Shown piece by piece: positions 1 through 53,481 of a stretch of DNA of 64,000 nucleotides. The number at the start of each line of letters is the position of its first letter. Within the stretch, counting starts at the first letter, position 1. A program made the translations under genes and the position numbers. The notes beneath the pieces are model-generated. The model was not told the origin of the DNA. It saw nothing but the letters and a program-made list of their open reading frames with translations, and did not search any database. Source of the stretch: Methanothrix sp. (lineage in GTDB: Archaea; Halobacteriota; Methanosarcinia; Methanotrichales; Methanotrichaceae); the NCBI GenBank assembly GCA_963682135.1, contig OY821645.1, forward strand, positions 2,432,001 to 2,496,000. Reading direction: 5' to 3'.

Positions 1-632
1 GAAAGATGCTCATCCCCCGTCGGGAGGAGCTGCGCCATGTGGGAATGCTGCCGCCGCTACGTACGGCTCATCACCCAATAAACTCAAAATCAGAATCGCT
101 CAAGATTGGCGAGTTTCGCGTCGGAGCAGTCGTTGAAAGCGTCGGATCTGATAGCGGCGTCTGGGTGGAAATCGGAATCAATCGCCCAATTCCCCTTCGC
201 ACCGAAAGTAGGTACTCGGTAGGGCAGCGCCTGAATGTCAGAATCTTTTCGCAGCAGCCGCTCGCCGCTGAGCCTGTGGACCCGAAGGATATCCCTCATT
301 ACTGGGGATACGAGACCGAGATAGTGGAGAGCCTGGAGAGCTACCTTGCTGCAAAGCATGAGCAGAGTGGCTACGTGGTTCTTACTTCTCGGCGCGGAAA
401 AGGCATAACGCCTGAAATCCTCTCCAACATGGGACACACTGGCTACCAGCGCGATCTTGCGGTCGTCTTCGGCTCACCAACACGGGGCGTAGATGCATTC
501 TTGAGCAAAGAGTCAATGGACAGATATGAAATGATCAACACCATTCCGCATCAAGGAACTGAGACGGTTCGCGTGGAAGAGGCTGTCTTTGCCACTTTAG
601 CCCTGCTCAACCTTATGCGTTTGGAGGACTAA
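1..632 (+). CDS. SPOUT-family RNA methyltransferase (DUF171/C9orf114-like), 5'-partial
   Basis: C-terminal NTIPHQGTETVRVEEA motif and VVFGSP; lies upstream of rpl3, as is usual in archaea. Confidence 0.85.
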   Translation, partial: KMLIPRREELRHVGMLPPLRTAHHPINSKSESLKIGEFRVGAVVESVGSDSGVWVEIGINRPIPLRTESRYSVGQRLNVRIFSQQPLAAEPVDPKDIPHYWGYETEIVESLESYLAAKHEQSGYVVLTSRRGKGITPEILSNMGHTGYQRDLAVVFGSPTRGVDAFLSKESMDRYEMINTIPHQGTETVRVEEAVFATLALLNLMRLED

Positions 633-13443: not shown

Positions 13444-14048
13444 ACGCCCAGCTGACCAAGTCCCTGGACAAAGCCGCCATGGCGGTGGGCTTTGTCCTTT
13501 TTTTTGGGGTAATGATCAGCACCGAATTAAGGACCGGCCTGGGAGTGGCTACCGGCCATTTGCTGGGGTGGCTACCTGAAATGCTTCCATTCCATGTGGT
13601 GCTCTTCATTTTAGCAGCAGTCACCGGTCTGTATGCCAGCCTGATTCAGAAGTACACTATGGACTGGGAGTACATGCGCAGTTCCCAAGAGAAGATGAAG
13701 ACACTGCAAAGAAGAATGAAAGAAGCGCAGCTTTCCGGTGATCAGGCCAGAATTCAAGCCATGCAAAACGAGCAGATGAAGGCGGTAGCCGATCAGGGTA
13801 AGATGATGCAGATGCAGTTTAAACCCATGCTCTACATAGGCATTGTTTCCATACCGCTCTTCATGTGGGCTTATAGTTTTATAGCCGCTAACCCGGAATT
13901 TACGATGACTTTTCCTTTCTGGGGGACGCATCTCATCCATTCCACGGTCTTGGGGCCGATCCTTTACTGGTTCTACTGGTACTTTATCTGTTCACTACCC
14001 GTATCGCAGATCATTCGTAAGGCTCTGGACATCGGGAGCATGAGCTAG
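13440..14048 (+). CDS. DUF106 / EMC3-TMCO1 (Oxa1 superfamily) membrane protein
   Basis: TM, coiled coil, then FKPM motif and WYFICS; conserved position after secY. Confidence 0.88.
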   Translation: MNAQLTKSLDKAAMAVGFVLFFGVMISTELRTGLGVATGHLLGWLPEMLPFHVVLFILAAVTGLYASLIQKYTMDWEYMRSSQEKMKTLQRRMKEAQLSGDQARIQAMQNEQMKAVADQGKMMQMQFKPMLYIGIVSIPLFMWAYSFIAANPEFTMTFPFWGTHLIHSTVLGPILYWFYWYFICSLPVSQIIRKALDIGSMS

Positions 14049-14050
14049 AG

Positions 14051-14575
14051 ATGATAATAACTATCAGCGGTGCGCCGGGAACGGGCACCTCAACACTGGC
14101 TCGTTCTCTTTCCCAGCAGCTAAAACTGCGCTGGGTTAACTCCGGGGATCTCTTTCGCAAGATCGCTGCCGAGAAGAATATTACCGTCCGGGAGATGAAC
14201 CGTCTGGCAGAGAAAGGTCCGGAGATCGATTATCTCATTGATGATGCTCAGAAGGTCCTGGCCAGGGATGGGGGCGGAATCTTTGAGGGTCGGCTGTCCG
14301 GGCATCTGTTGCCGGCGGATTTGAAGGTCCTTTTAAAGGCTGACCTTCGCACAAGAGCCGAGCGGATCGCCAAACGCGAGGCAAAGCTGACTGAAGATGC
14401 TATGCAGGAGACGCGCGCTCGAGAGGAGAGCGAATCCCGGCGGTATAAGATGTACTACAACATTGATATAAGCGACTTTTCCGCTTATGATCTGGTAGTG
14501 GATAGCGGAAAGTTCGATGAAGCGGCGACGCTGGCAATTGTGCTCGCCGGCGTGAGGGTCTGCTCGTGTCCGTGA
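14051..14575 (+). CDS. cmk: Cytidylate kinase (archaeal type)
   Basis: ITISGAPGTGTST, EGRLSG, RYKMYYNIDI. Confidence 0.92.
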   Translation: MIITISGAPGTGTSTLARSLSQQLKLRWVNSGDLFRKIAAEKNITVREMNRLAEKGPEIDYLIDDAQKVLARDGGGIFEGRLSGHLLPADLKVLLKADLRTRAERIAKREAKLTEDAMQETRAREESESRRYKMYYNIDISDFSAYDLVVDSGKFDEAATLAIVLAGVRVCSCP

Positions 14576-44007: not shown

Positions 44008-44035
44008 AGGGTGAGCAGCACAAGGGGCTCTTGGC

Positions 44036-44109
44036 GCCTCGATAGCTTAGCCCGGTATAGCGCGTCCTTGGTAAGGACGAGGTCGCGGGTTCGAATCCCG
44101 TCCGAGGCT
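44036..44109 (+). tRNA. tRNA-Thr(GGT)
   Basis: GCCTCGATAGCTTAG..CGTCC-TTGGTAA-GGACG..GGTTCGAATCCC..CGAGGC; A7-C66 mismatch. Confidence 0.9.
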
Positions 44110-44154
44110 TTAATTTTTTTTTGTTTTGATTGGCTTTATAGTGGGGGAGTTGAT

Positions 44155-44580
44155 ATGGATAAGAAATGCATATTGATTATTGACGATGATAGAGGCATAC
44201 TCGAGGGCTTCAAGCTAATCTTAGAGCGGAAAGGTTATCTAACTGATACGGCAGAGACCGGCAGTGAAGCCATAGAAAAGGTGCAAAGCAATTATTTTAA
44301 CCTGGCATTAATCGATACCAAGCTTCCTGATATGGATGGTACTGCTCTTCTCTCGGAATTTCGCCAGCTTAATCCGGAGATGAAAAAGATCATCATTACG
44401 GGTTTTTCCACTCGAGAAAATGCCATTCTATGCCTGAACCTGGGGGCAGACGCATATTTAGAAAAGCCTGTAACTCCTGGAAAATTGCTGGAGTTCGTTG
44501 CAGCGAAATTGGCAGAACAGGAATATGAGATCAAGTATCATGAGGATACTGTGAATAAGTTGCTCCAATCTCGCAAGTAA
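44155..44580 (+). CDS. Single-domain response regulator (receiver)
   Basis: ILIIDDD, LIDTKLPDMDG, ITG, KP; ATG 44155 after GGGGGAG (the track start overlaps the tRNA). Confidence 0.9.
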   Translation: MDKKCILIIDDDRGILEGFKLILERKGYLTDTAETGSEAIEKVQSNYFNLALIDTKLPDMDGTALLSEFRQLNPEMKKIIITGFSTRENAILCLNLGADAYLEKPVTPGKLLEFVAAKLAEQEYEIKYHEDTVNKLLQSRK

Positions 44581-44606
44581 TTTTATTAACCTAAATAATA
44601 TACAAA

Positions 44607-44786
44607 TCCTCCGTCAGCCCATAAAGCCGGGACCCCGTCGATCAGCCCGTCCGTGGCCTCGATCTGGCGCAGCAGGGCAGTTTTTTCGTGAGGAGTGCCG
44701 GCTTGGGGGAGCCGCTTGTGCGAGAAGCGAGCAATCTCTGCACCAGGGAGACCATGCGGTCATGACGAGCGATGTCGGCGGGATCC
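44607..44786 (-). repeat. Type IIG R-M 3'-end repeat, copy B1 (distal, truncated)
   Basis: CCGTCAGCCC..TCGATCAGCCCGTCCGTGGCCTCGATC..GGCAGTTTTTTCGTGAGG..CACCAGGGAGACCATGCG core shared with B2-B7. Confidence 0.9.
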
Positions 44787-44844
44787 TCCAATAGTTTAAA
44801 ATTATTTTTTAAGGTAGGATATAACTCTCTCTGCCCTGATCAAA

Positions 44845-46575
44845 CCCAACCTCCCGGATCAAGTAGACACATTAACCGGTCGATCTCAATTATAAAGCTC
44901 CTATTTTGAAAAACAACCCTGACTAAGCCCACTTAGCGAAAGATATTTATACTATATGCGCCTACTATTATTGAGGCGCATAATGCAAACCACTCGACGA
45001 ATCAAAGTGAAAAATGGGATCGAATATTGGTACGAAGAAACACCTTACTATGACAAGGAGAAAAAACAGATCAGACATAAATCAAAATATTTAGGAAGAA
45101 ACGTAGATGGCCAGCCGGTCCGGATGCGTTCCGCCCCTGACGAGGTCAAAGAGAAGACGAAAAAGAAAACAGAGGCGATCAAGTCATCATTTGATTATGG
45201 CTCCATATTCGTTCTTCAGTCAATTATGGAAGAGCTTCATATGGATCGCTATCTGGAAGTTTTGTTGTCTCCTTCGGAAGTGTCCATGGTTCGCGCATTG
45301 GCATTTAACCGGATTATACGACCTACTGCAATGAGGAATGTAGATTCATGGTACGAAGGAACCTCTCTTGCCCTCGAATCTCCGCAAATCAATCTTACCA
45401 GTCAGCGAGTAAGTGAGCTTCTCGGTCGATTGGGTGAAAGCAATATTCCAGACAGATTCATGTCCCAGCTTATCGAAGGAACCGGTACGAAAGACACACT
45501 CATTTACGATATTACGAGCCTGTCAAGTTACTCTCAACTCATCAATATTCTTGAGTACGGGTACAATCGTGATGGCGAGTCTCTTCCGCAAATCAATCTG
45601 TCCCTGATTCTGGATAAGGATAAAGGGATACCCGTGATGTATGACATCTTCCCCGGCAGTATTTCCGATGTCAGTACGCTTTCCGGCACTCTAAAAAAGA
45701 TAAAAGCGCATGGCATCCAAAATTATGTTGCTGTGATGGATTGTGGATTTTTCAGCTTGAGCAACCTTCGCGAGCTGATGACGAATAAAATCTCATTTAT
45801 TATGGCGGCCAGATTGCAGTTGAATGATTTGAAGCACCTGCTGACGGAAGTGCAAAAGGATCTTGATGATGTAAAATATCTCCACAAGTTTAACAAGGAT
45901 CCCATTTTTGCCAAACCAATTTCATATATTATTGATTCAATTGAAATCAGGGGGTATGTTTATTATGATCCCAAATTAGAGCAAACCGAGAAGCAGACAC
46001 TCCTAAGCAGACTCTATGATATTCGTGAAGAGTTGCTCAAGGTGCGCTTGAATAAGAACAGTAACCCCCACGTAGTTTTCAAAGATAAAGCACACGGATT
46101 TGGAAACTTCTTCGACTGGAATGTTATGGATAATCGCTTTGAAGTTACGATAAAACAAAACGCAGTTGCACAAAGAATGAACAAAATGGGCAAGTATATT
46201 ATATTCTACTCAGGAAACTTTGACGAGATGAAGTGCCTTTCTCTCTATCGCGAACGCGATGAAATTGAAAAGAGCTTCAAGGCATTGAAAAGCGAAATTG
46301 ACATCCTTCCATTGAATACTCATGGCGAAGAGACAACAAGAGGATTCATTTTTATCGCTTTCCTGAGTCTGATTATAAGGTCACGACTGATAAATATGAT
46401 GAAGGATGCAGAGATACTAGACAAATATTCTGTTGAACTTCTTCTGCTGCAATTGGAGAAATTAAGAAAAATTGCTCTTGCAGACGGACAGATAATAGTC
46501 ACCGAAATGACAAAAAAACAGAGGGAAATTCTTCAGGCGCTAGACTTGTGCGCCTGAACTTTTCGGGAGGTTGGG
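44845..46575 (+). mobile_element. IS1634-family insertion sequence
   Basis: Perfect 12-bp TIR CCCAACCTCCCG (44845-44856 / 46564-46575) and 6-bp TSD ATCAAA (44839-44844 / 46576-46581). Confidence 0.92.
44956..46557 (+). CDS. IS1634-family DDE transposase (start may be 44983)
   Basis: YDITS, YGYNRD..LPQIN, D.GF, YRERDEIEKSFKALK. Confidence 0.9.
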   Translation: MRLLLLRRIMQTTRRIKVKNGIEYWYEETPYYDKEKKQIRHKSKYLGRNVDGQPVRMRSAPDEVKEKTKKKTEAIKSSFDYGSIFVLQSIMEELHMDRYLEVLLSPSEVSMVRALAFNRIIRPTAMRNVDSWYEGTSLALESPQINLTSQRVSELLGRLGESNIPDRFMSQLIEGTGTKDTLIYDITSLSSYSQLINILEYGYNRDGESLPQINLSLILDKDKGIPVMYDIFPGSISDVSTLSGTLKKIKAHGIQNYVAVMDCGFFSLSNLRELMTNKISFIMAARLQLNDLKHLLTEVQKDLDDVKYLHKFNKDPIFAKPISYIIDSIEIRGYVYYDPKLEQTEKQTLLSRLYDIREELLKVRLNKNSNPHVVFKDKAHGFGNFFDWNVMDNRFEVTIKQNAVAQRMNKMGKYIIFYSGNFDEMKCLSLYRERDEIEKSFKALKSEIDILPLNTHGEETTRGFIFIAFLSLIIRSRLINMMKDAEILDKYSVELLLLQLEKLRKIALADGQIIVTEMTKKQREILQALDLCA

Positions 46576-46900
46576 ATCAAAGCATCCTGAGACATTGAAG
46601 ACAAACCACTGATCGAATCGTCATAATCAGCTCTATTACGATGATTTCGCAAACGCCTTAATTCTAAGGCCAGTTTCCTTCCATTACTTCTTTTGCCCAA
46701 GCAGTAGAGCTGGCTAATGACATAACTATGGACGCTTTCATCGGGAATGATCTTATGCTCCTCATCTCTAAGATGGTTTCTAGCGGTACAAAAGGCCGCG
46801 TAGTATGCCCTGCTGATTGATGAGCGAAGCCTTGCCTCATCTTTCTCGTCGGATGATGCCAGACTTTTTGCCAGGCTCAAGTAGCGACACCATTCGAAGC

Positions 46901-47233
46901 CTATTCGTACTCCACCTGGATGAGCAGCTTAGAGTCTGACGCATCTGAGACATTGAGCAACCAATTATCGTCCAGTTGATCCAATTTATCAATGGCATCT
47001 TGCGGTGATAGATCGGTGCAGATATAGACGACCAACTGTTTGTCGCCGATCTCGTCTGGATCAGTCACTACTTCTAAGAATAGGATCTCTGAAGGGAAAA
47101 AATTTCGTATTCGACTGTAGGCCTCCATTAGCAAAGGCAAAAGATGCGGATTGCTGCCAACAAAGTCGTACACATCTGCCGCGGTCTTCAGTGTATACTT
47201 GTTATTTAGGTGTACCATGTCATGATTTCGCAT
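46901..47233 (-). CDS. Hypothetical partner protein upstream of HEPN (antitoxin-like)
   Basis: ATG 47233 after GAGGAG; directly abuts the HEPN gene. Confidence 0.65.
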   Translation of the reverse strand: MRNHDMVHLNNKYTLKTAADVYDFVGSNPHLLPLLMEAYSRIRNFFPSEILFLEVVTDPDEIGDKQLVVYICTDLSPQDAIDKLDQLDDNWLLNVSDASDSKLLIQVEYE

Positions 47234-47358
47234 GGTATCTCCTCGGTCTCCAACATCCGCCTCAGTGATCATCAGAATTCCTCTTCGTCGGCATGAAATA
47301 AATAGATTTCATCGGCAAATCAGTCTGCCATATCCAGGGTGTCTACCTGGGACTTCCG

Positions 47359-47514
47359 CTTCCCCAATCCCGATCTCCTCTTCCGGCAGACCGTAAAGCT
47401 GGTCTCCCGTCGATCAGCCCGTCCGTGGCCTCGATCCGGCGCTGCATGGCAGTTTTCTCGTGAGGCTTGGCAGCTTCGGGGAGCTGTTTGTGCGAGAGCG
47501 AGCATTTTATCCAC
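47359..47514 (-). repeat. Type IIG R-M 3'-end repeat, copy B2
   Basis: Same core; reads DKMLA.., frameshifted. Confidence 0.9.
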
Positions 47515-47590
47515 TTTGGATTATCATTTTAACGATCGCAAGGTTAAAATTGCTGCAACCCATTAGTAGGAATAGGGGGAATAGTGCACT

Positions 47591-47851
47591 GTGCCGTTTA
47601 CCAAAGTTGATGAAAAAGGCAGAATGGTTCTACCTAATGAAATCAGGCGCAAGATGAAGATCTCACCTGGTGATGAATTTGTTGTGGACGAGGTCGGGCC
47701 GGACACAATTCTAATTAGAAAAGTGGATGTAAGATCCATGATTCATGATGCGATTGAGCGTGCCAAGTCTGTAGACCTCGATAAGCTCCAAAAAGAGATG
47801 GACGAAGAGGGAAACAGAGTTGCCAGAAAGATGTACAAGGTTCTTGATTGA
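47591..47851 (+). CDS. AbrB/MazE-family antitoxin (VapB)
   Basis: TKVDEKGRMVLPNEIRRKMKISPGDEF. Confidence 0.9.
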   Translation: MPFTKVDEKGRMVLPNEIRRKMKISPGDEFVVDEVGPDTILIRKVDVRSMIHDAIERAKSVDLDKLQKEMDEEGNRVARKMYKVLD

Positions 47852-48233
47852 CTCCAATCTATTTATTGCGGCGGTAAAGAGCGGTTGGACGAATAGTTCA
47901 AAGCTTCTCTCTGTCCTCCTGGATGGCTCTTTCGAATTGGTTGCAAACAAATCTTTGTTTGCGGAGTATGAGAAGTATGCTCAGCAACTTGATGCACAAT
48001 ATATCTTCTATTACATGAAAAGCAGGATTATTTTGACTGATCAGTCCGAAAACGAGGTGCAGAGATGCAAGCCATTCTTTCCTGAAAGTCAGGCCGCTGA
48101 TGTGGTTCATGCTGCAACCTGTCTTCATACCGCAGCGGTCTTAATCACAAATGATAAACATTTTGATAAAATAAGAGATGCAGGCCTCATAAGAGTTTGG
48201 AGCATCTCCGAGGCTATTAAGAATCTACTTTGA
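47820..48233 (+). CDS. PIN-domain toxin (VapC); start may be TTG 47844
   Basis: FLIDSNLF, ADVVHAATCL, LITNDKHF. Confidence 0.88.
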   Translation: MPERCTRFLIDSNLFIAAVKSGWTNSSKLLSVLLDGSFELVANKSLFAEYEKYAQQLDAQYIFYYMKSRIILTDQSENEVQRCKPFFPESQAADVVHAATCLHTAAVLITNDKHFDKIRDAGLIRVWSISEAIKNLL

Positions 48234-48265
48234 ATATCTCAAACTGAATTATCTTCAACCATGTT

Positions 48266-48500
48266 CTATCCTGCATCTTCCACAATCCTGATCTCCTCTT
48301 CAGTCAGCCCGTATAGCTCGTAGACCAGCGCGTCGATCTGTCCGTCCGTGGCCTCGATCTGCCGCTGCAGGGCAGTTTTTTCGTGAGGCATGGCAGCTTC
48401 GAGGAGCTGTTTATGCAGGGCGAGCATCTTCTCCACCAGGGAGACAAGCGAATCGTGGCGGGCGACGTCGGCGGGGTCGGAGAAAGCGATGGTGCGGATT
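48266..48500 (-). repeat. Type IIG R-M 3'-end repeat, copy B3 (longest, frame intact)
   Basis: IRTIAFSDPADVARHDSLVSLVEKMLALHKQL..EKTALQRQIEATDGQIDALVYELYGLTEEEIRIVE, the typical C-terminus of Eco57I/TaqI-like fused R-M enzymes. Confidence 0.92.
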
Positions 48501-48578
48501 AGGAAAATTTCTGCTTGAAATATTTCATGGGTCGCGTAGGTCCAGACTGTTGCAGTTCTCGGCAAGTTGGCAAAAGAA

Positions 48579-48872
48579 TTAGATTTTGAGCTTGCCCCTT
48601 GCCTCCAGCAAAGACACTAAACTCTCTGCTGACATAGGACATTCTATCAGATCATCGAGTTCGCGGATCGACTCAAGATGCAACTCTTTTTTCATAGCAT
48701 TCAAGAGTCGATCCTCGTATTCATCCAGGCCGTGACTGATCCAAGTAAATATGCTGGTCTTTTTTCCACTAACATATAATGTATATTTTATATGTTTTGA
48801 TTTGCCTTTTTTTGGAGAGAATCCTTTTTTCGTCAGAGATGCTACGATCTTCCTGGTCTTATACGCTGGCAT
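48579..48872 (-). CDS. HicA-like toxin
   Basis: SLTKKGF..SKHIKY..TWISHG.. dsRBD-like HicA pattern; overlaps the upstream gene. Confidence 0.7.
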   Translation of the reverse strand: MPAYKTRKIVASLTKKGFSPKKGKSKHIKYTLYVSGKKTSIFTWISHGLDEYEDRLLNAMKKELHLESIRELDDLIECPMSAESLVSLLEARGKLKI

Positions 48873-49923
48873 TTGACTTTTCTACTCCAAACGAGGCGAT
48901 CAATTCCTTTCGAAAATCCATAGCATCCCGGCTAAGCAGTTCGAGGCCGGTTTCCACATAATCTTCCCATAGAATTTCTATTTCTTCGTTCAAATCTTCA
49001 ATTGCAGCCTTGAGGGTCGAGCCATATCCTCGCAAATGGAACTTATCATTTGAGACCCAATATTGATCATCCTCGTAGATCACTTCAAGCAAAATAGGCA
49101 CCTTCAAATTCAGCGATCTTCCCTTCATTCTGATCTTATCCAACGGCACCAATTCCAGATACTCGATAGATTTTTCGTTCACCAGGCGGAGGGCATACTT
49201 GCCTCCCTTCTCCAGTGCCATTATGCCTCTAATGAGAACCAAACGACCAATATTTTCAATGATCCTGTCTTCAAGGTCTTGGGCATATGTACAGGTAACT
49301 ACGCCTTCAAAAGTATCTATTTGAAAGCTCCTTCTCTGATCTACCCTCACTTCCATCAGTCGTCCAACAACTGATTTCTCAACGTTTTCCGGCTGCCTGG
49401 AAAGCACATTTCGAAATACATGCTTATGAGATGGCTGCAACCTCATTATGTCATGTTTTCCAAAGCCAAGACCAACATTATATTCAGATTGCTCATCCGG
49501 CCATATCGCATCAAGCTCATGAAGTACTCTAGTAAGCCGATGCTCATTTTTCATAGTCTCTGAAAGCGCGTGGGCAATATCCCTCTCTTGGGAGACGTTG
49601 ACAAGGATTTTATCCGCGATCAAAAGTGCCTTTTCACCATAAGTCACACCGCCGGGAAGACACATCTGCGAATCCGAAATCATCAATTCAGCTTCGACGC
49701 TACCGATATGCATTCCACTGATGACCAGTTCAGCTTTCTCCTTAACACTGTTTGGGAAATCCCCTGCTTTGCGTGTAGGGTTTCCTTCCAGCTCATCAAT
49801 GATATAAAAAAGAATATTCTGCAATCTCTGAAATATTCCTGCTACAAAAAGGGCTGAAATTTGACCATTATTCCTGGTCTTTGACTCAACTAACAATTTT
49901 ATCCGTTTAGTTTCATCGCCCAT
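48859..49923 (-). CDS. 354-aa protein with C-terminal HicB-like domain
   Basis: C-terminal YWVSND..RGYGSTLKAAIEDLNEEI..WEDY resembles the HicB RNase-H-like core. Confidence 0.6.
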   Translation of the reverse strand: MGDETKRIKLLVESKTRNNGQISALFVAGIFQRLQNILFYIIDELEGNPTRKAGDFPNSVKEKAELVISGMHIGSVEAELMISDSQMCLPGGVTYGEKALLIADKILVNVSQERDIAHALSETMKNEHRLTRVLHELDAIWPDEQSEYNVGLGFGKHDIMRLQPSHKHVFRNVLSRQPENVEKSVVGRLMEVRVDQRRSFQIDTFEGVVTCTYAQDLEDRIIENIGRLVLIRGIMALEKGGKYALRLVNEKSIEYLELVPLDKIRMKGRSLNLKVPILLEVIYEDDQYWVSNDKFHLRGYGSTLKAAIEDLNEEIEILWEDYVETGLELLSRDAMDFRKELIASFGVEKSNASV

Positions 49924-50000
49924 AGGTCCACCGTTTATTTATGCCCTTATTTCTACATATCCTTATCGTTTCAGTTTCTGAAAGTTCTTTATTGAAGTTT

Positions 50001-50190
50001 CTACTTGTTCGCCTTCTCCACAATCCCGATCTCCTCTTCCGTCAGCCCGTAAAGCCGGAACCCCGTCGATCAGCCCGTGCGTGGCCTCGATCTGTCGCTC
50101 CAGGGCAGTTTTTTCGTGAGGCGTGGCAGCTTCGGGGAGCTGTTTATGCGAGAAGCGAGCATTCTCTCCACGAGGGAGACCATGCGATAT
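50001..50190 (-). repeat. Type IIG R-M 3'-end repeat, copy B4
   Basis: Same core; ends ..GLTEEEIGIVEKANK*. Confidence 0.9.
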
Positions 50191-50197
50191 GCCATTT

Positions 50198-50584
50198 TTA
50201 GTTCTGTTTTCCCACAGATCTCACAACATTGATAAAATCTTCGATTTGAATATTCGAGATGTCAAGCGCGGCAAGAAGCCCTTCATCATCCATTAAGCGC
50301 TTCATCAGCCGTCTCGTGACCTCTGAGTCGTATGCTTTATCGTGATGATCCAAATTTATAAACACGACGGCGTTTTCAAAAATTAAATAAACGACAACGA
50401 AGTGCTCTGAAATATGTAATGCTCTCAGTCCTCTGAGATTATGGCTCTTGGGCTCGCCTATCTCTGGATTTTGCCGAATACACTTCATTTTATTTATTAC
50501 TTGAAGCTTAAACGTTCTATTTTTACCAGTTAATTTAGAAAATTTCTTGTCAAAATAACCGGTAGTAATGGATTTAAATGCCAT
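50198..50584 (-). CDS. RelE/ParE-family toxin
   Basis: FDKKFSKL..NPEIGEPK..LRGLRALHI..FVVVY..LDHHDKAY. Confidence 0.85.
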   Translation of the reverse strand: MAFKSITTGYFDKKFSKLTGKNRTFKLQVINKMKCIRQNPEIGEPKSHNLRGLRALHISEHFVVVYLIFENAVVFINLDHHDKAYDSEVTRRLMKRLMDDEGLLAALDISNIQIEDFINVVRSVGKQN

Positions 50585-50603
50585 TTGTGATCAAAATTGA
50601 GAT

Positions 50604-50777
50604 TTATAGGCGCATCAAGTGGGCTTCCATCTCCTCGTCATCCTCAAAGACTGTGTAGCGTCCCCCAGCAAAATCCTTTAGACCTTTCACAATACCTTCA
50701 ATGAAGTCTTCCTCTTTCTTTGCTTCTTTATTTGGGATAACTTCCATTTCTGCATTAAGAGGATGTGAACATGCCAT
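50604..50777 (-). CDS. 57-aa putative RelB-like antitoxin (absent from the ORF track)
   Basis: MACSHPLNAEMEVIPNKEAKKEEDFIEGIVKGLKDFAGGRYTVFEDDEEMEAHLMRL*, directly upstream of relE. Confidence 0.7.
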   Translation of the reverse strand: MACSHPLNAEMEVIPNKEAKKEEDFIEGIVKGLKDFAGGRYTVFEDDEEMEAHLMRL

Positions 50778-50975
50778 GCTCTTATGATATCGTCATGATC
50801 GTATTTAAATCCATTGTGCTCTGAGGGCTTTGCTGCATCTCTCCCAATGTTATCCTTCTAGTTTATGCATCTGCAAATATTCGTATTGGAAACCAACATC
50901 ATCCTCATCAAGGCAATCTATTTCTTCCTTATCACGGCGTCGGTCTGTCGTGCCTCGTTTTTCATTGAGTCGCTT

Positions 50976-51157
50976 TCGCCTCCACAATCCCTATCTCCTC
51001 CTCCGTCAGCCCGTATAGCTCGTAGACCAGGGCATCGATCTGCCCGTCCGAGGCTTCGATCCGGCGCTGCAGGGCAGTTTTCTCGTGAGGCGTGGCAGCT
51101 TCGGGGAGCTGTTTATGCGAGATGCGAGAAATCTTTGCACCAGGAGGGCCATGAGAT
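50976..51157 (-). repeat. Type IIG R-M 3'-end repeat, copy B5
   Basis: Same core; ..GQIDALVYELYGLTEEEIGIVE. Confidence 0.9.
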
Positions 51158-51186
51158 CCGCTATCAATCGTTTCTCAAGTTCATAA

Positions 51187-51594
51187 TCATAATAGATTCA
51201 TCAGTTCTCTTGTGGTAAAAACTTTGACGACATCCTGCCTCTTGAAATGTCCATCGTTGCTCCAGATCGGACAGTCTAAATACATTGCCAGAGCCAGGAA
51301 TGGAGAGTCATCGATATCAATTTCAGACATCACTTCAATTGCACTATCTTTGAAGGGGGCCAAGTCTTCAAGAGGGATAAAACTGATTTTGCTGAAGATA
51401 AAATCTTTTAAATAATCAAAGGACTTTTCATCTAGCTTTGACTTGGATAATAATTCGTCTTTGTGTCTTTCTATCTCACGATTGGCATATTCAACTGTAT
51501 ACATTTTAAAAGGTGATACGGATATTATATCTCTGGTCAAACCATTCCTTAGGAGAGAAGATATCAGGATATTCGTATCCGGCACTATCTCCAT
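51187..51594 (-). CDS. PIN-domain toxin (VapC)
   Basis: VPDTNILISSL, DIDDSPFLALA, IWSNDGHF. Confidence 0.9.
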   Translation of the reverse strand: MEIVPDTNILISSLLRNGLTRDIISVSPFKMYTVEYANREIERHKDELLSKSKLDEKSFDYLKDFIFSKISFIPLEDLAPFKDSAIEVMSEIDIDDSPFLALAMYLDCPIWSNDGHFKRQDVVKVFTTRELMNLL

Positions 51595-51824
51595 CCTAAT
51601 TTCTCCATTATTTCCCGCTTCATCTTGTGGTCTAATTCATTCACGTCATCTTCAGAAAGATCGCTTTTTTCCAGGAGCGTGTCAAAAATTATTGAAATGA
51701 ATATATCATTTTTTATATCTTCTAGAATATCCCGCTCTATTCTTTTTCGCACTAGTGCATCCAAATCTCTGTTGGCCTTTATCGATAACTCAATCTCTCG
51801 GGGAAGCTCAACTTCTATCGACAT
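51585..51824 (-). CDS. Antitoxin (VapB-like)
   Basis: Acidic 79-aa ORF overlapping the PIN start; LLEKSDLSEDDVNELDHKMKR tail. Confidence 0.75.
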   Translation of the reverse strand: MSIEVELPREIELSIKANRDLDALVRKRIERDILEDIKNDIFISIIFDTLLEKSDLSEDDVNELDHKMKREIMEKLGWR

Positions 51825-51864
51825 TTTATTGCCCGTATCCTAAATGCTGGAAAAGAATATAAAA

Positions 51865-52062
51865 CTACTTGCTCGCCTTCTGCACAATCCCGATCTCCTC
51901 TTCCGTCAGCCCGTACAGCCGGTCCCCCGTCGATCTGCCCGTCCGTGGCCTCGATCTGGCGCTGCATGGCCGTCTTCTCATGAGGCGTGCTGGCTTGGGG
52001 GAGCTGCTTGTGCGAGAAGCGAGCAATCTCTGCACCAGGGAGACCATGCGATCATGACGGGC
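51865..52062 (-). repeat. Type IIG R-M 3'-end repeat, copy B6
   Basis: ARHDRMVSLVQRLLA..(shifted frame)..LYGLTEEEIGIVQKASK*. Confidence 0.9.
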
Positions 52063-52549
52063 TAGCATTCCAAAGACCTATCGTTTCCCGCGCATCTTTC
52101 AGCGATACAATTTTGAGCTGAAAGCCATATGGAACCTGATAGTTCAGAAGAATTTTGTCGGTGGTTATGAGGTAATTCATATTATACGCCAGAGCATAAC
52201 CAAGATGAGTACGATCAGTTGGCTGCAATCGATCTTTGCATTCGTCCACAAGATGCCAGCAGACTTCAGCTACCCTATTTGTAGGCGGCAGGAATCTGAT
52301 ATCAAGTTTCCTCCATAGCTCGATCAAAGAGGCAATCGTCTCCATTTTGTGAGGATCGCTTCCCTCTTTTTCGCGAGTCAGACTCTTAAAAACAGTTTCT
52401 GCAAGCACTGAGAATGGGACACAAAGCTCCAGCGTGGGGTGATTATCGATGTGGTCGAGAAGGCCGATTGCAAGCTGCGACTTTCTATCTTTTTTTTCAG
52501 TGCTAACAGAATAAAAGAAGATATCAGCGTCTATGGCAACGTGATTCAT
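52052..52549 (-). CDS. PIN-domain toxin
   Basis: VAIDADIF, E, DRTHLGYAL, LITTD. Confidence 0.85.
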   Translation of the reverse strand: MNHVAIDADIFFYSVSTEKKDRKSQLAIGLLDHIDNHPTLELCVPFSVLAETVFKSLTREKEGSDPHKMETIASLIELWRKLDIRFLPPTNRVAEVCWHLVDECKDRLQPTDRTHLGYALAYNMNYLITTDKILLNYQVPYGFQLKIVSLKDARETIGLWNASPS

Positions 52550-52704
52550 TTCTTGCCAAAAGCCTTCTCTATTCTTTCCTTCGTCGCCTTATCTTCTTCT
52601 TCGGTAACAGCCCATACGATCCTGCCGTTGATATCCACAGCACCGCCGTAAGGCAACTGATTCTTGTCCGAGTCATAGATCTGCCCGACTACATATTCTG
52701 CCAT
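52546..52704 (-). CDS. 52-aa putative antitoxin (absent from the ORF track)
   Basis: MAEYVVGQIYDSDKNQLPYGGAVDINGRIVWAVTEEEDKATKERIEKAFGKK*; ATGA overlap with the PIN gene. Confidence 0.65.
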   Translation of the reverse strand: MAEYVVGQIYDSDKNQLPYGGAVDINGRIVWAVTEEEDKATKERIEKAFGKK

Positions 52705-52776
52705 TCATTTCCTCGATCTGAGTTTGGCTTTTTTCGATAATATAGTTTTCGCCGGTTCATTTGTCTGCCTGCGATC

Positions 52777-52979
52777 CTTCTACGATTCTTATCTCCTATT
52801 CCGTCAGCCCGTACAGCTCGTAGACCAGGGCATCTATCTGCCCGTCCGTGGCTCGATCTGTCGCTACAGGGCAGTTTTTTCGTGAGGCGTGGCAGCTTCG
52901 GGGAGCTGTCTATGCAAGGCGAGCATCTTCTCCACCAGGGAGACAAGCGAATCGTGGCGGGCGACATCGGCGGGGTCGG
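52777..52979 (-). repeat. Type IIG R-M 3'-end repeat, copy B7 (proximal)
   Basis: DPADVARHDSLVSLVEKMLALHRQLPE..; degenerate, with stops and a frameshift. Confidence 0.9.
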
Positions 52980-53045
52980 TGCAGAATGGGAGCAGCTATG
53001 ATACGGGATCAAGAAATGGATATACAGACTTTCGACTATGATTTT

Positions 53046-53161
53046 ACCACAAAGGCACAAAGCTCACAAAGAACGCACAAAGACTAATCGGCAAAATATA
53101 TCCTAACCAGAATTTAATAATTTTCTTTGTGAGTCCTTTGTGCGCGTTGTGTCTTTGTGGT
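53046..53161. repeat. Imperfect inverted repeat built from tandem CACAAAG units (REP-like)
   Basis: ACCACAAAG-GCACAAAG-CTCACAAAG-AACGCACAAAG, ~40-nt spacer, then CTTTGTGAG-TCCTTTGTGCG-CGTTGTGT-CTTTGTGGT. Confidence 0.8.
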
Positions 53162-53259
53162 GATAGTAGTAGTAAGTACTAACACCCCATCCTGCCAAAA
53201 TATATTTGACAATTATGATACTAATTTCCTTCGACATCGACTGCCTCCTCCTCTTTGAC

Positions 53260-53481
53260 CTATCTCTTGTCGGCCCGGCATTCCTGCTTGTGGTAGACAT
53301 CCCAGCCCAGCGCCTCAAAAAAGGGATTGATGAACTCCGTTCTCAGCTCGGTCTCATTGTACTGACTGGATCGATAGATGTCCTGGTCACGCTCGAACTT
53401 CTCCATCAGCTCGAGGATCTTTGCTGGTGCCTGTGCTTGTGTCGGTGCCTCTGCCTGCAATTTCTTTGCCCTCCGGCGCAC
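53260..53481 (-). pseudogene. N-terminal remnant of a type IIG (Eco57I-like) R-M enzyme
   Basis: APAKILELMEKFERDQDIYRSSQYNETELRTEFINPFFEALGWDV, then a premature stop. Confidence 0.8.

Follow-up and report, generated by a model that had tools for sequence, protein, structure and literature searches.

In a 64,000-nucleotide (nt) stretch of a Methanothrix sp. genome (GenBank assembly GCA_963682135.1, contig OY821645.1, positions 2,432,001 to 2,496,000), which we call the window, six two-gene cassettes of predicted toxin-antitoxin (TA) type are separated by seven copies of the 3' end, or tail, of a type IIG restriction-modification (R-M) gene. Because relatives carry other cassette sets and orders at the same place, the tail seems to be a re-usable docking site for defence genes. 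We consider it probable that the cassettes have been gained, lost and reshuffled by general homologous recombination between R-M tails, a form of serial insertion with long target duplication. The system in the window is itself a relic, with a dead head gene and a TA stack that has remained. The layout is a widespread and apparently undescribed way in which defence genes pile up behind one R-M family. Throughout, G000 denotes the genome of the window (3.04 Mb), G001-G016 the genomes of relatives, and labels beginning with L the sampled loci; amino acids are abbreviated aa and open reading frames ORFs.

The gene tails and their source

The initial annotation had described seven co-oriented repeats in the window, and a search with nhmmer gave coordinates that agree with it. 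The query consisted of the last 330 nt of the intact orthologous R-M gene of G012 plus 30 nt (360 nt in all), and it found seven minus-strand copies of the type IIG R-M gene 3' end, all in the same orientation and 165-294 nt in length, with E-values from 6.6e-23 to 3.7e-52 (R1 to R7, Table 1). Repeat finding on the window returned four overlapping families (5, 5, 6 and 3 copies) that together cover seven sites. On the 3' side, every copy extends to the source gene's stop codon except R1, in which ~30 nt are missing from the end. On the 5' side the copies begin at different places, between query positions 40 and 151 in the window and between 40 and 175 when the copies of relatives are included. 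R3, which corresponds to aa 959-1037 of the G012 enzyme with 81% identity, retains the reading frame over a 5-nt indel, as do R5 and R7. In R1, R2, R4 and R6, a 5-nt deletion causes a frameshift ahead of the conserved LVYELYGLTEEEI peptide, and because of this frameshift we regard these four as pseudogene fragments, relics that are kept as DNA and not as protein. The island is AT-richer than its flanks, with a GC content of 0.37-0.50 compared to 0.52-0.65.

The source gene can be recognised from its orthologue in G012, where a Pfam search places HSDR_N, N6_Mtase/Eco57I/MmeI_Mtase and TaqI_C in one protein. Judged by these domains, it encodes a predicted single-chain type IIG R-M enzyme that joins a nuclease, an N6-adenine methylase and a specificity domain, and the earlier assignment of the repeat to the C-terminus of an Eco57I/TaqI-like fused R-M enzyme was borne out. 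The window repeats match aa ~942-1038 of the 1038-aa G012 enzyme; with the end of TaqI_C at aa 961, the repeat consists essentially of what follows the specificity domain. As had also been proposed, an N-terminal R-M remnant heads the array: it aligned by tblastn with aa 1-84 of the G012 enzyme, and a 73-aa ORF at 53260-53481 lies within it. The gene is internally deleted, with about aa 85-960 gone and an inverted pair of a ~38-nt unit in their place. The window's own R-M gene is dead, only aa 1-84 and the tail being left.

Six intact genes, five from Methanothrix/Methanotrichaceae and one from Methanolinea, were compared along their length. Over the first ~650 columns (nuclease and methylase), aa identity was 0.7-0.9; it fell to 0.14-0.34 in the specificity region and rose to 0.6-0.83 over the final ~60 columns. 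From this profile, the tail is a short stretch of conservation that follows a hypervariable domain. Where residues are identical, codon identity was higher in the tail than elsewhere in the gene (0.62-0.72); homogenisation of the tail at synonymous sites barely exceeds that of the rest of the gene, which makes it weak evidence. In bacterial and archaeal phyla there are gene ends with 54-75% identity to the 71-aa R3 peptide. Short proteins (39-125 aa) that resemble this peptide numbered 1149 at E <= 1e-5, many of them on contigs of <2 kb, where a gene cut by the contig end would give the same picture, so that the number is no more than a hint of abundance.

When G000 was searched by blastn with the seven copies and their flanks, 32 places matched, 20 of them only to the flank of R7, which holds the 38-nt unit. 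The repeat proper gave 12 strong matches at four loci (seven in the window, and two, two and one elsewhere). Two of these loci hold an R-M gene or its N-terminal remnant, and a third holds a tail copy that extends ~300 nt into the gene. The initial annotation had considered that the repeats might be scattered over the genome in the manner of a miniature inverted-repeat transposable element (MITE); in G000 they are not scattered, and the 12 matches are tied to R-M gene ends. At one locus (L112), where the small genes between the tails are not TA genes by Pfam, we noted three small paralogues with WWQFW(K/R) at the C-terminus, and a weak MarR-like helix-turn-helix match.

Cassettes, junctions and relatives

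All 12 cassette ORFs of the window were covered by a Pfam profile search, which confirmed the intervals that had been read as six two-gene modules, with two of the families falling short of the Pfam cut-offs. Four of the six predicted toxins (PIN, ParE, PIN_2 and PIN) scored above the Pfam cut-offs, HEPN and HicA scored below them, and the only antitoxin match was MazE/AbrB. The 123-aa partner in cassette 1 had no match in Pfam or NCBIfam, the 354-aa protein of cassette 3 had none in Pfam, and an NCBIfam search of eight cassette proteins gave no match. By Pfam, there were no mobility genes among the 12 ORFs.

Our survey of relatives comprised 18 other genomes of the genus and 12 from other genera of the class, many of them incomplete; the repeat was present in 15 of the former and in 0 of the latter. 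The array locus adjoins hydantoinase/deacetylase genes in G000, G012, G001, G004 and G010, and it is also orthologous in L036 and L033. At this locus the R-M gene is intact in G012 (1038 aa), and a full-length R-M frame is also present in G001, L036, G013 (on a contig without the flank genes) and G015 (on contig C39, at another locus). In G004, N- and C-terminal R-M matches lie a gene length apart, with no frame of at least 900 aa that ends in the tail. The end copy of the head R-M gene there (L015, 8964-9220, minus strand) carries the 5-nt deletion variant that is typical of orphan tails. Because this head copy has the orphan-type deletion and no full-length frame, orphans may convert, and possibly damage, a live R-M gene.

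A comparison of cassette order across relatives, as had been suggested at the outset, showed that both content and order differ at the orthologous locus among G000, G012, G001, G004 and G010 (Table 1), so the arrays are not identical in all relatives. Cassette 6 precedes cassette 3 in G000 and follows it in G010, and the ParE cassette (4p) precedes cassette 6 in G012 and follows it in G015. Because these orders conflict, differential loss from one ancestral order cannot explain the arrays. Cassette 2 (93% identity in aa) recurs as the fourth cassette in G012 and the first in L038, cassette 3 (94-98% in aa) lies directly behind the R-M remnant in G010 (L018), cassette 5 is also found in G001, G011 and G012, and cassette 6 in G001, G010, G012, G013, G015 and G016 (L010). 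Cassette 1 was not found in any relative examined. Beyond family level, no cassette protein of the window was found in Methanolinea L035 or in loci titled as other taxa, with the single exception of a HEPN match in L102 that lies ~9 kb upstream of the L102 tail copy.

In G009 (L029), the R-M gene has a single 3' end with no adjoining cassette, and in G013 the R-M gene is followed by cassette 6 and then by a second tail of G013's own allele. A comparison of these two genomes gives what is expected of a long target duplication, namely direct repeats of >30 bp that are single-copy in the genome without the insert. At the hydantoinase locus of G005 there is no R-M gene or repeat, but with the glycosyltransferase/response regulator flank not adjacent there, the locus does not serve as a clean empty site. 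In G012 (L013, 8115-8522, minus strand), a deletion has made the PIN_2 gene of cassette 5 read in frame into the final codons of the tail behind it; the fusion protein ends ...LYGLTEAEIGIVEDAAMQNG and is an example of array erosion that makes a chimeric ORF.

Junctions were aligned for cassette 6 with its flanks from six genomes and for 4p from eight places. Cassette 6 in all six genomes, and 4p within each subtype, kept both junctions whatever the neighbours. At the upstream junction, the last codons of the tail, the stop codon and the next ~25 nt travel with the cassette; at the downstream junction, it is the start point of the truncated tail that does so (query ~105 for cassette 6, ~135 for cassette 5, and subtype-specific for 4p). 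The repeat interiors do not track the cassettes. In an alignment of 33 copies, we scored three indel markers (2, 3 and 5 nt) over ~115 nt, counting the 2-nt intermediate form of the 3-nt marker as the deletion state, and observed all four combinations for every marker pair (20/4/5/1, 14/11/3/2 and 15/7/4/1). G000 and G001 differ at all three markers in the repeat that separates cassettes 6 and 5, with the cassettes 92-100% identical in protein, and within G000 the interiors of R6 and R1 are nearly alike although they lie 7 kb apart.

Chimeric repeats were present in two hosts with a divergent R-M allele, G013 (cassette 6) and L073 (4p). In both, cassette-linked sequence makes up the initial 45-50 nt of the downstream copy, which then changes to the host allele, and the upstream copy is of host type until its last codons. 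As far as alignments can tell, this pattern would be expected from ends-in recombination with gap repair, or from later conversion, both of which are homologous recombination.

The broad sample consisted of the best 80 of 399 related stretches, taken from contigs of one genome per species with at most 10 kb of flank on each side; contigs of G001, G012 and G009 recur in the sample as L032, L034 and L037. At least two copies of the tail peptide occurred in 24 of the 80. If a tail copy inside an open frame of at least 500 aa is counted as a full gene, one full gene followed by orphans was found in 17 of the 80 loci, a figure that is not a frequency because the loci were picked by similarity to the query and multi-copy loci were favoured; two full genes were found in 0 of the 24 multi-copy loci. 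The 36 orphan tails were all downstream and co-oriented, nearly all reached within a few residues of the C-terminal end of the tail, and their 5' truncation was variable. Four of the 17 loci are titled Methanothrix or Methanotrichaceae, and the other 13 Methanolinea, Methanobacteriota, Methanomicrobia, Methanophagaceae, ANME-1, Chloroflexi/Anaerolineae (six), Coatesbacteria and Bacteroidetes. Repeats are also seen at the DNA level in distant loci, with four copies of 234 nt in L048, five copies of 191 nt in L105, and six to seven copies in L069. The cargo of loci from other phyla matched SIR2_2, RhuM, ApeA with HEPN_Apea, Fic, PIN, PemK/MazF, PIN_12, Schlafen AlbA_2, TPR, YhcG/DUF1016 and MqsA, as well as Swt1-type HEPN and DUF2254, both of these below cut-off. 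In L069 (Anaerolineales), a 526-aa Swt1-HEPN-like cassette gene contains five tandem 54-nt (18-aa) repeats at 13816-14128.

Table 1. Features of the window, further tail loci in G000, and arrays in relatives. Positions are those of the window unless prefixed with G000. In the arrays, numbers are window cassettes, 4p is the ParE cassette, and m is the 38-nt element together with the tail copy that belongs to it.
Feature	Position	Strand	Basis and remarks
tRNA-Thr (GGT) gene	44036-44109	+	~500 nt from the distal array end
R1, orphan tail	44605..44836	-	nhmmer, query 40-298, E 3.3e-29; distal array end; 5-nt deletion type
Insertion sequence (IS) transposase gene (DDE_Tnp_1, 533 aa)	44956-46557	+	Pfam E 5.4e-14; inserted between R1 and cassette 1
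Cassette 1: 123-aa partner (46901-47272) and HEPN-like (46533-46880)	46533..47272	-	HEPN E 0.0031, below Pfam cut-off
R2, orphan tail, shortest	47356..47520	-	nhmmer, query 151-319
Cassette 2: MazE/AbrB (47591-47851) and PIN (47820-48233)	47591..48233	+	Pfam; inverted relative to the array
R3, orphan tail, in frame	48274..48513	-	inside 99-aa ORF 48266-48565
Cassette 3: 354-aa protein (48859-49923) and HicA-like (48579-48872)	48579..49923	-	HicA E 0.0064, below cut-off
R4, orphan tail, 5-nt deletion type	49986..50188	-	nhmmer, alignment
Cassette 4: 57-aa protein (50604-50777) and ParE/RelE toxin (50198-50584)	50198..50777	-	ParE_toxin E 2.3e-5
R5, orphan tail, frame kept across 5-nt indel	50973..51158	-	nhmmer, alignment
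Cassette 5: 79-aa protein (51585-51824) and PIN_2 (51187-51594)	51187..51824	-	Pfam E 1.1e-26
R6, orphan tail, 5-nt deletion type	51866..52064	-	nhmmer; interior close to R1
Cassette 6: 52-aa protein (52546-52704) and PIN (52052-52549)	52052..52704	-	Pfam
R7, tail copy, longest	52746..53039	-	nhmmer; type found after ~38-nt inverted-repeat element in G004 and G015
Inverted pair of dispersed ~38-nt CACAAAG-rich unit	53046..53165		between R7 and N-terminal remnant, at the R-M deletion junction
N-terminal remnant (aa 1-84) of type IIG R-M gene	53227..53481	-	tblastn, 86% to G012 enzyme; HSDR_N weak
Intact 1030-aa paralogous R-M gene with one tail, then cassette 6 relative	G000:627726-630818		
Two tail copies around ParE cassette	G000:1109113-1109987		adjoins tail copy reaching ~300 nt into gene
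Two tail copies around 3.5 kb of small genes	G000:C1:1158769-1162609 (L112)		no recognisable R-M gene nearby
Array in G000			m, 6, 5, 4, 3, 2 (inverted), 1
Array in G012			4p, 6, 5, 2 (inverted), GNAT cassette
Array in G001			6, 5
Array in G010			3 directly behind R-M remnant; second contig: MazF cassette, 6, adjoining response-regulator flank
Array in G015			contig C39, another locus: m, 6, 4p
Array in G004			m, 4p, m
Array in L038			2 (inverted) with IS605 insertion, Mrr, PIN, 4p

The IS in the first interval is a later insertion and not part of the system. Its summed contig depth in the public run X23 was tens to hundreds of times that of most neighbouring bins, and very high over 45014-45627; because this depth is so high, the IS is either multi-copy in X23 or common to other organisms. 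The ~38-nt unit occurs at ~20 other places in G000, singly or as inverted pairs and often several within a few kb (for example at 591825-596942, 938186-939461, 1436112-1439205 and 2814043-2817318). In G004 and G015 it is placed like a cassette between two tail copies, and in metagenome runs the centre between its arms varies. At the distal end, a long ORF (44011-44580) overlaps the tRNA-Thr gene, so the probable start of the response-regulator gene is an internal Met near 44155. The position of the island beside a tRNA gene could be a hint of an old integrative element, but the two are separated by the response regulator and no integrase is present. Elsewhere in the window, positions 148-241 (plus strand) match the Rfam L4-Archaeoglobi ribosomal-protein leader with 52.3 bits (gathering score 34.5).

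How the array may have formed

The initial annotation had likened the array to an integron, with the provisos that the spacer is not attC and that no integrase lies in the window, and both provisos hold. A PF00589 profile search of the whole of G000 gave five matches (two broken, one weak) at 721, 912, 1635 and 2807 kb. No tyrosine recombinase was found in the window or within 90 kb of any copy by this search, the one nearest to the array being 322 kb away. PF00239, the profile for serine recombinases, had no match in G000; other recombinase families were not searched. With neither profile matching near the repeats, a linked tyrosine or serine recombinase was rejected for G000, and the search for a co-occurring recombinase that had been recommended found none linked to the repeats. 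Among 30 inter-repeat ORFs from other phyla, 0 matched a recombinase or transposase by Pfam. Ten single-strand DNA folds of repeat cores had z-scores from -1.33 to +1.23 relative to shuffles, which is within the shuffle range, and a separator of the attC type was rejected since there is no hairpin and the repeat is coding-derived. Of the integron-like cassette system, then, the tail as a re-used landing site and the variation in content and order stand, and for dedicated machinery there is no evidence.

The locus consists of the remains of a single-chain type IIG R-M gene and of cassettes that accumulated behind its stop codon, each trailed by a 5'-truncated, non-functional copy of the R-M tail. 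We propose that the conserved tail after the hypervariable specificity domain would act as a portable homology arm, such that a tail-bracketed cassette, or a circle or linear piece with tail-derived ends, could recombine into any related R-M 3' end. Entry by the general homologous recombination of the cell would regenerate the R-M gene and leave a duplicated tail, and later recombination and gene conversion between tails would delete, reorder and homogenise units. The dominance of TA and abortive-infection-type genes might reflect that addictive or defensive cargo survives frequent repeat-to-repeat deletions. In G000, the R-M gene would have been lost later and the TA stack would have stayed. 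Homologous recombination as the agent, the ends-in/gap-repair mode of entry, and the selective reason for the cargo are what we infer from these patterns. We prefer general homologous recombination to a site-specific system acting in trans because no dedicated machinery was found, there is no hairpin, and the 5' ends vary.

Several points weigh against this proposal. The 24 public runs considered consist of Logan contigs; at least half of the sampled words were present in 5 of the 24, and X19, X21, X23 and X1 were compared with the window. No recombination event was observed, and in X19 and X21 (0.89-0.97 of sampled words) the window cassettes recur unchanged. Every unitig breaks off in a repeat, and none of the listed pieces covers the stretch from end to end. 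Joints from one repeat to another occurred at 47441>48453 (R2-R3; X19 and X21) and 50054>52791 (R4-R7; X21), and in metagenome X1 at 48445>52951 (R3-R7) and 47493>44727 (R2 back to R1). These joints have 23-35 nt on the shorter side, inside the repeat, and may be mapping artefacts or come from other strains, so they count neither for nor against excision or heterogeneity. In both chimeras the change of allele falls within one conserved block, which encodes DVARHD...MV; a preferred site may be at work there, though homologous recombination would also meet its first stretch of identity in this block. All copies have a constant 3' boundary at the stop codon, for which selection for an intact gene or a site-directed process could account. 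Of the 30 cargo ORFs from other phyla, 13 had a Pfam match (E <= 0.001), two of these below cut-off, and the way in which the broad sample was picked counts here as well.

The proposal might be extended to a tail that is a selected and still active docking platform, a recombinase-free (or R-M-enzyme-stimulated) counterpart of the integron that captures, stacks and exchanges defence cassettes across paralogous loci, species and phyla and thereby seeds defence islands; this we regard as possible and yet doubtful. A dedicated site-specific system, in which cassettes would be inserted and excised in trans, at an att-like core of the tail, by the R-M enzyme or by a recombinase whose gene lies elsewhere, would account for the constant stop-codon boundary, for the strict polarity of the arrays (36/36 orphans downstream and co-oriented), and for the switch of two independent chimeras in the same conserved block. 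Models for such action in trans are the integron integrase, which acts on attC, and the integrases of integrative and conjugative elements, which mobilise integrase-less cis-mobilizable elements. One cassette is inverted, unlike in integrons, so the fit is loose. We consider this system unlikely, given that the 5' ends vary (query 40 to 175), that R2, R4, R5 and R6 are without the candidate block, that the interiors recombine at several places, and that neither a tyrosine recombinase within 90 kb of the copies, nor a serine recombinase in G000, nor a recombinase among the 30 cargo ORFs, nor a hairpin in the repeats was found.

Type IIG enzymes cut away from their site. Widely staggered breaks at the gene end, possibly made by such an enzyme, could have been followed by ligation of foreign DNA and fill-in, as proposed for insertion with long target duplication, with later homogenisation by conversion. 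This homology-independent duplication strikes us as less likely again, even though the inserts are without mobility genes and both flanking copies are of the host allele in G013, in G000 locus b and in L073, as in a true target duplication. Such insertions without mobile elements are described for several bacterial phyla in the accessible part of Furuta et al. 2010 (PMC2853133). However, between genomes a cassette takes with it the adjoining 45-50 nt of the downstream copy, as well as the final codons and stop codon of the upstream one; because these tail ends travel with them, the cassettes seem to arrive already bearing tail sequence, which points to homology-guided entry. That the array is debris of tandem complete R-M and TA modules, with each R-M gene deleted except for its 3' end, is very improbable. 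R-M decay is real here, as the loss of about aa 85-960 from the window gene shows, and the intact paralogous R-M gene of G000 precedes a cassette 6 relative, but six independent deletions would be needed, each sparing only the last 165-290 nt. Cassette-to-tail junctions are, moreover, common to several species, two full genes occur in 0 of the 24 multi-copy loci whereas one full gene with orphans occurs in 17, and 2-5 orphans already lie behind intact head genes (G012, G001, L105 and L069). Hardly credible, and the least likely of all, is a repeat that is itself a small non-autonomous, MITE-like mobile element, derived from the R-M gene and landing between genes. As such an element would have it, a genome contains several copies, and some of them (G000:1158769 and 1162443) stand where no R-M gene can be recognised, but the repeats have no terminal inverted repeats and no structure, their 5' ends are variable, they occupy only four loci in G000, and array copies always share the orientation of the head gene; the element of this locus that is truly dispersed is a different one, the ~38-nt unit.

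Defence-island growth and known systems

TA, Abi-type (abortive infection) and other defence genes cluster around R-M genes, and how such islands grow without mobile-element genes is poorly understood. Recombination between R-M tails at this locus offers a concrete, testable route for such growth. Each use of the tail would leave a datable scar, the orphan tail, so that the history of an island could be read from its repeats. With scars in Chloroflexi, Bacteroidetes, Coatesbacteria, Methanomicrobia and ANME-1, a census could gauge the share that this route has in the growth of defence islands. The locus also holds a warning for annotation, as many small 'hypothetical proteins' that match TaqI_C-family tails would be gene relics. 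Full-text literature searches gave no account of R-M tail repeats that separate TA or defence cassettes.

Chromosomal integrons, in which TA cassettes are said to regulate cassette dynamics (this is attributed to Richard et al. 2024), resemble the arrays described here in being ordered and polar, with small cassettes and a recurring separator, and their TA cassettes are thought to stabilise the array. Content and order vary between genomes here too. In contrast to integrons, the arrays lack IntI, attI and a folded attC; what separates the units is decayed coding sequence whose 5' ends vary, and the units are two-gene modules with an orientation of their own.

Other comparisons concern TA genes or R-M loci. 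For TA islets of Photorhabdus (2026, PMC13617665), integration by homologous recombination at flanking core genes has been proposed, and the available part of that paper does not mention tail repeats of the present kind. In Microcystis, a TA pair is 'fenced' by two 152-bp direct repeats behind a caspase-homologue gene, but according to the available part of the report these repeats lie outside the gene (PMC7935541). For type IIG genes, the accessible text of Furuta et al. 2010 (PMC2853133) describes allelic replacement of the domain for target recognition via recombination between conserved flanks, and the architecture is the same as here, with a hypervariable specificity domain between conserved homology arms. 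The repeats in our arrays differ in that they begin at or after the end of TaqI_C (aa ~942 of 1038), bring no alternative specificity domain, and have unrelated genes between them. At the pneumococcal tvr type I R-M locus, as described in the available part of Kwun et al. 2018 (PMC6265443), direct repeats guide the excision of circles and their reinsertion there, a process that requires the tyrosine recombinase TvrR, and the locus contains TA homologues; hsdS segments are shuffled there, whereas here the units are TA and defence genes and no recombinase is linked to them. In two features, the present locus departs from tvr/ivr shufflons: it has no recombinase of its own (PF00589, PF00239), and its repeats are without the TaqI_C body.

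Insertion with long and variable target duplication was reportedly described by Nobusato et al. in 2000. Inserts of this type, like those in our arrays, are without a mobility gene and lie between direct repeats whose length is variable, from tens to hundreds of bp. In the accessible part of Furuta et al. 2010 (PMC2853133), R-M systems are the inserts in such events and no mobile elements are involved; further likenesses there are a repeat that is single-copy in genomes lacking the insert, the linkage to R-M genes, and a target that can overlap the 3' end of a gene. In the main text of that paper, as far as it is accessible, the words 'toxin' and 'tandem' each occur 0 times. There, the R-M system is the insert, whereas here the R-M tail is the target and TA and defence genes are the inserts, added serially at one site, with up to seven copies of the tail, as exchangeable units.

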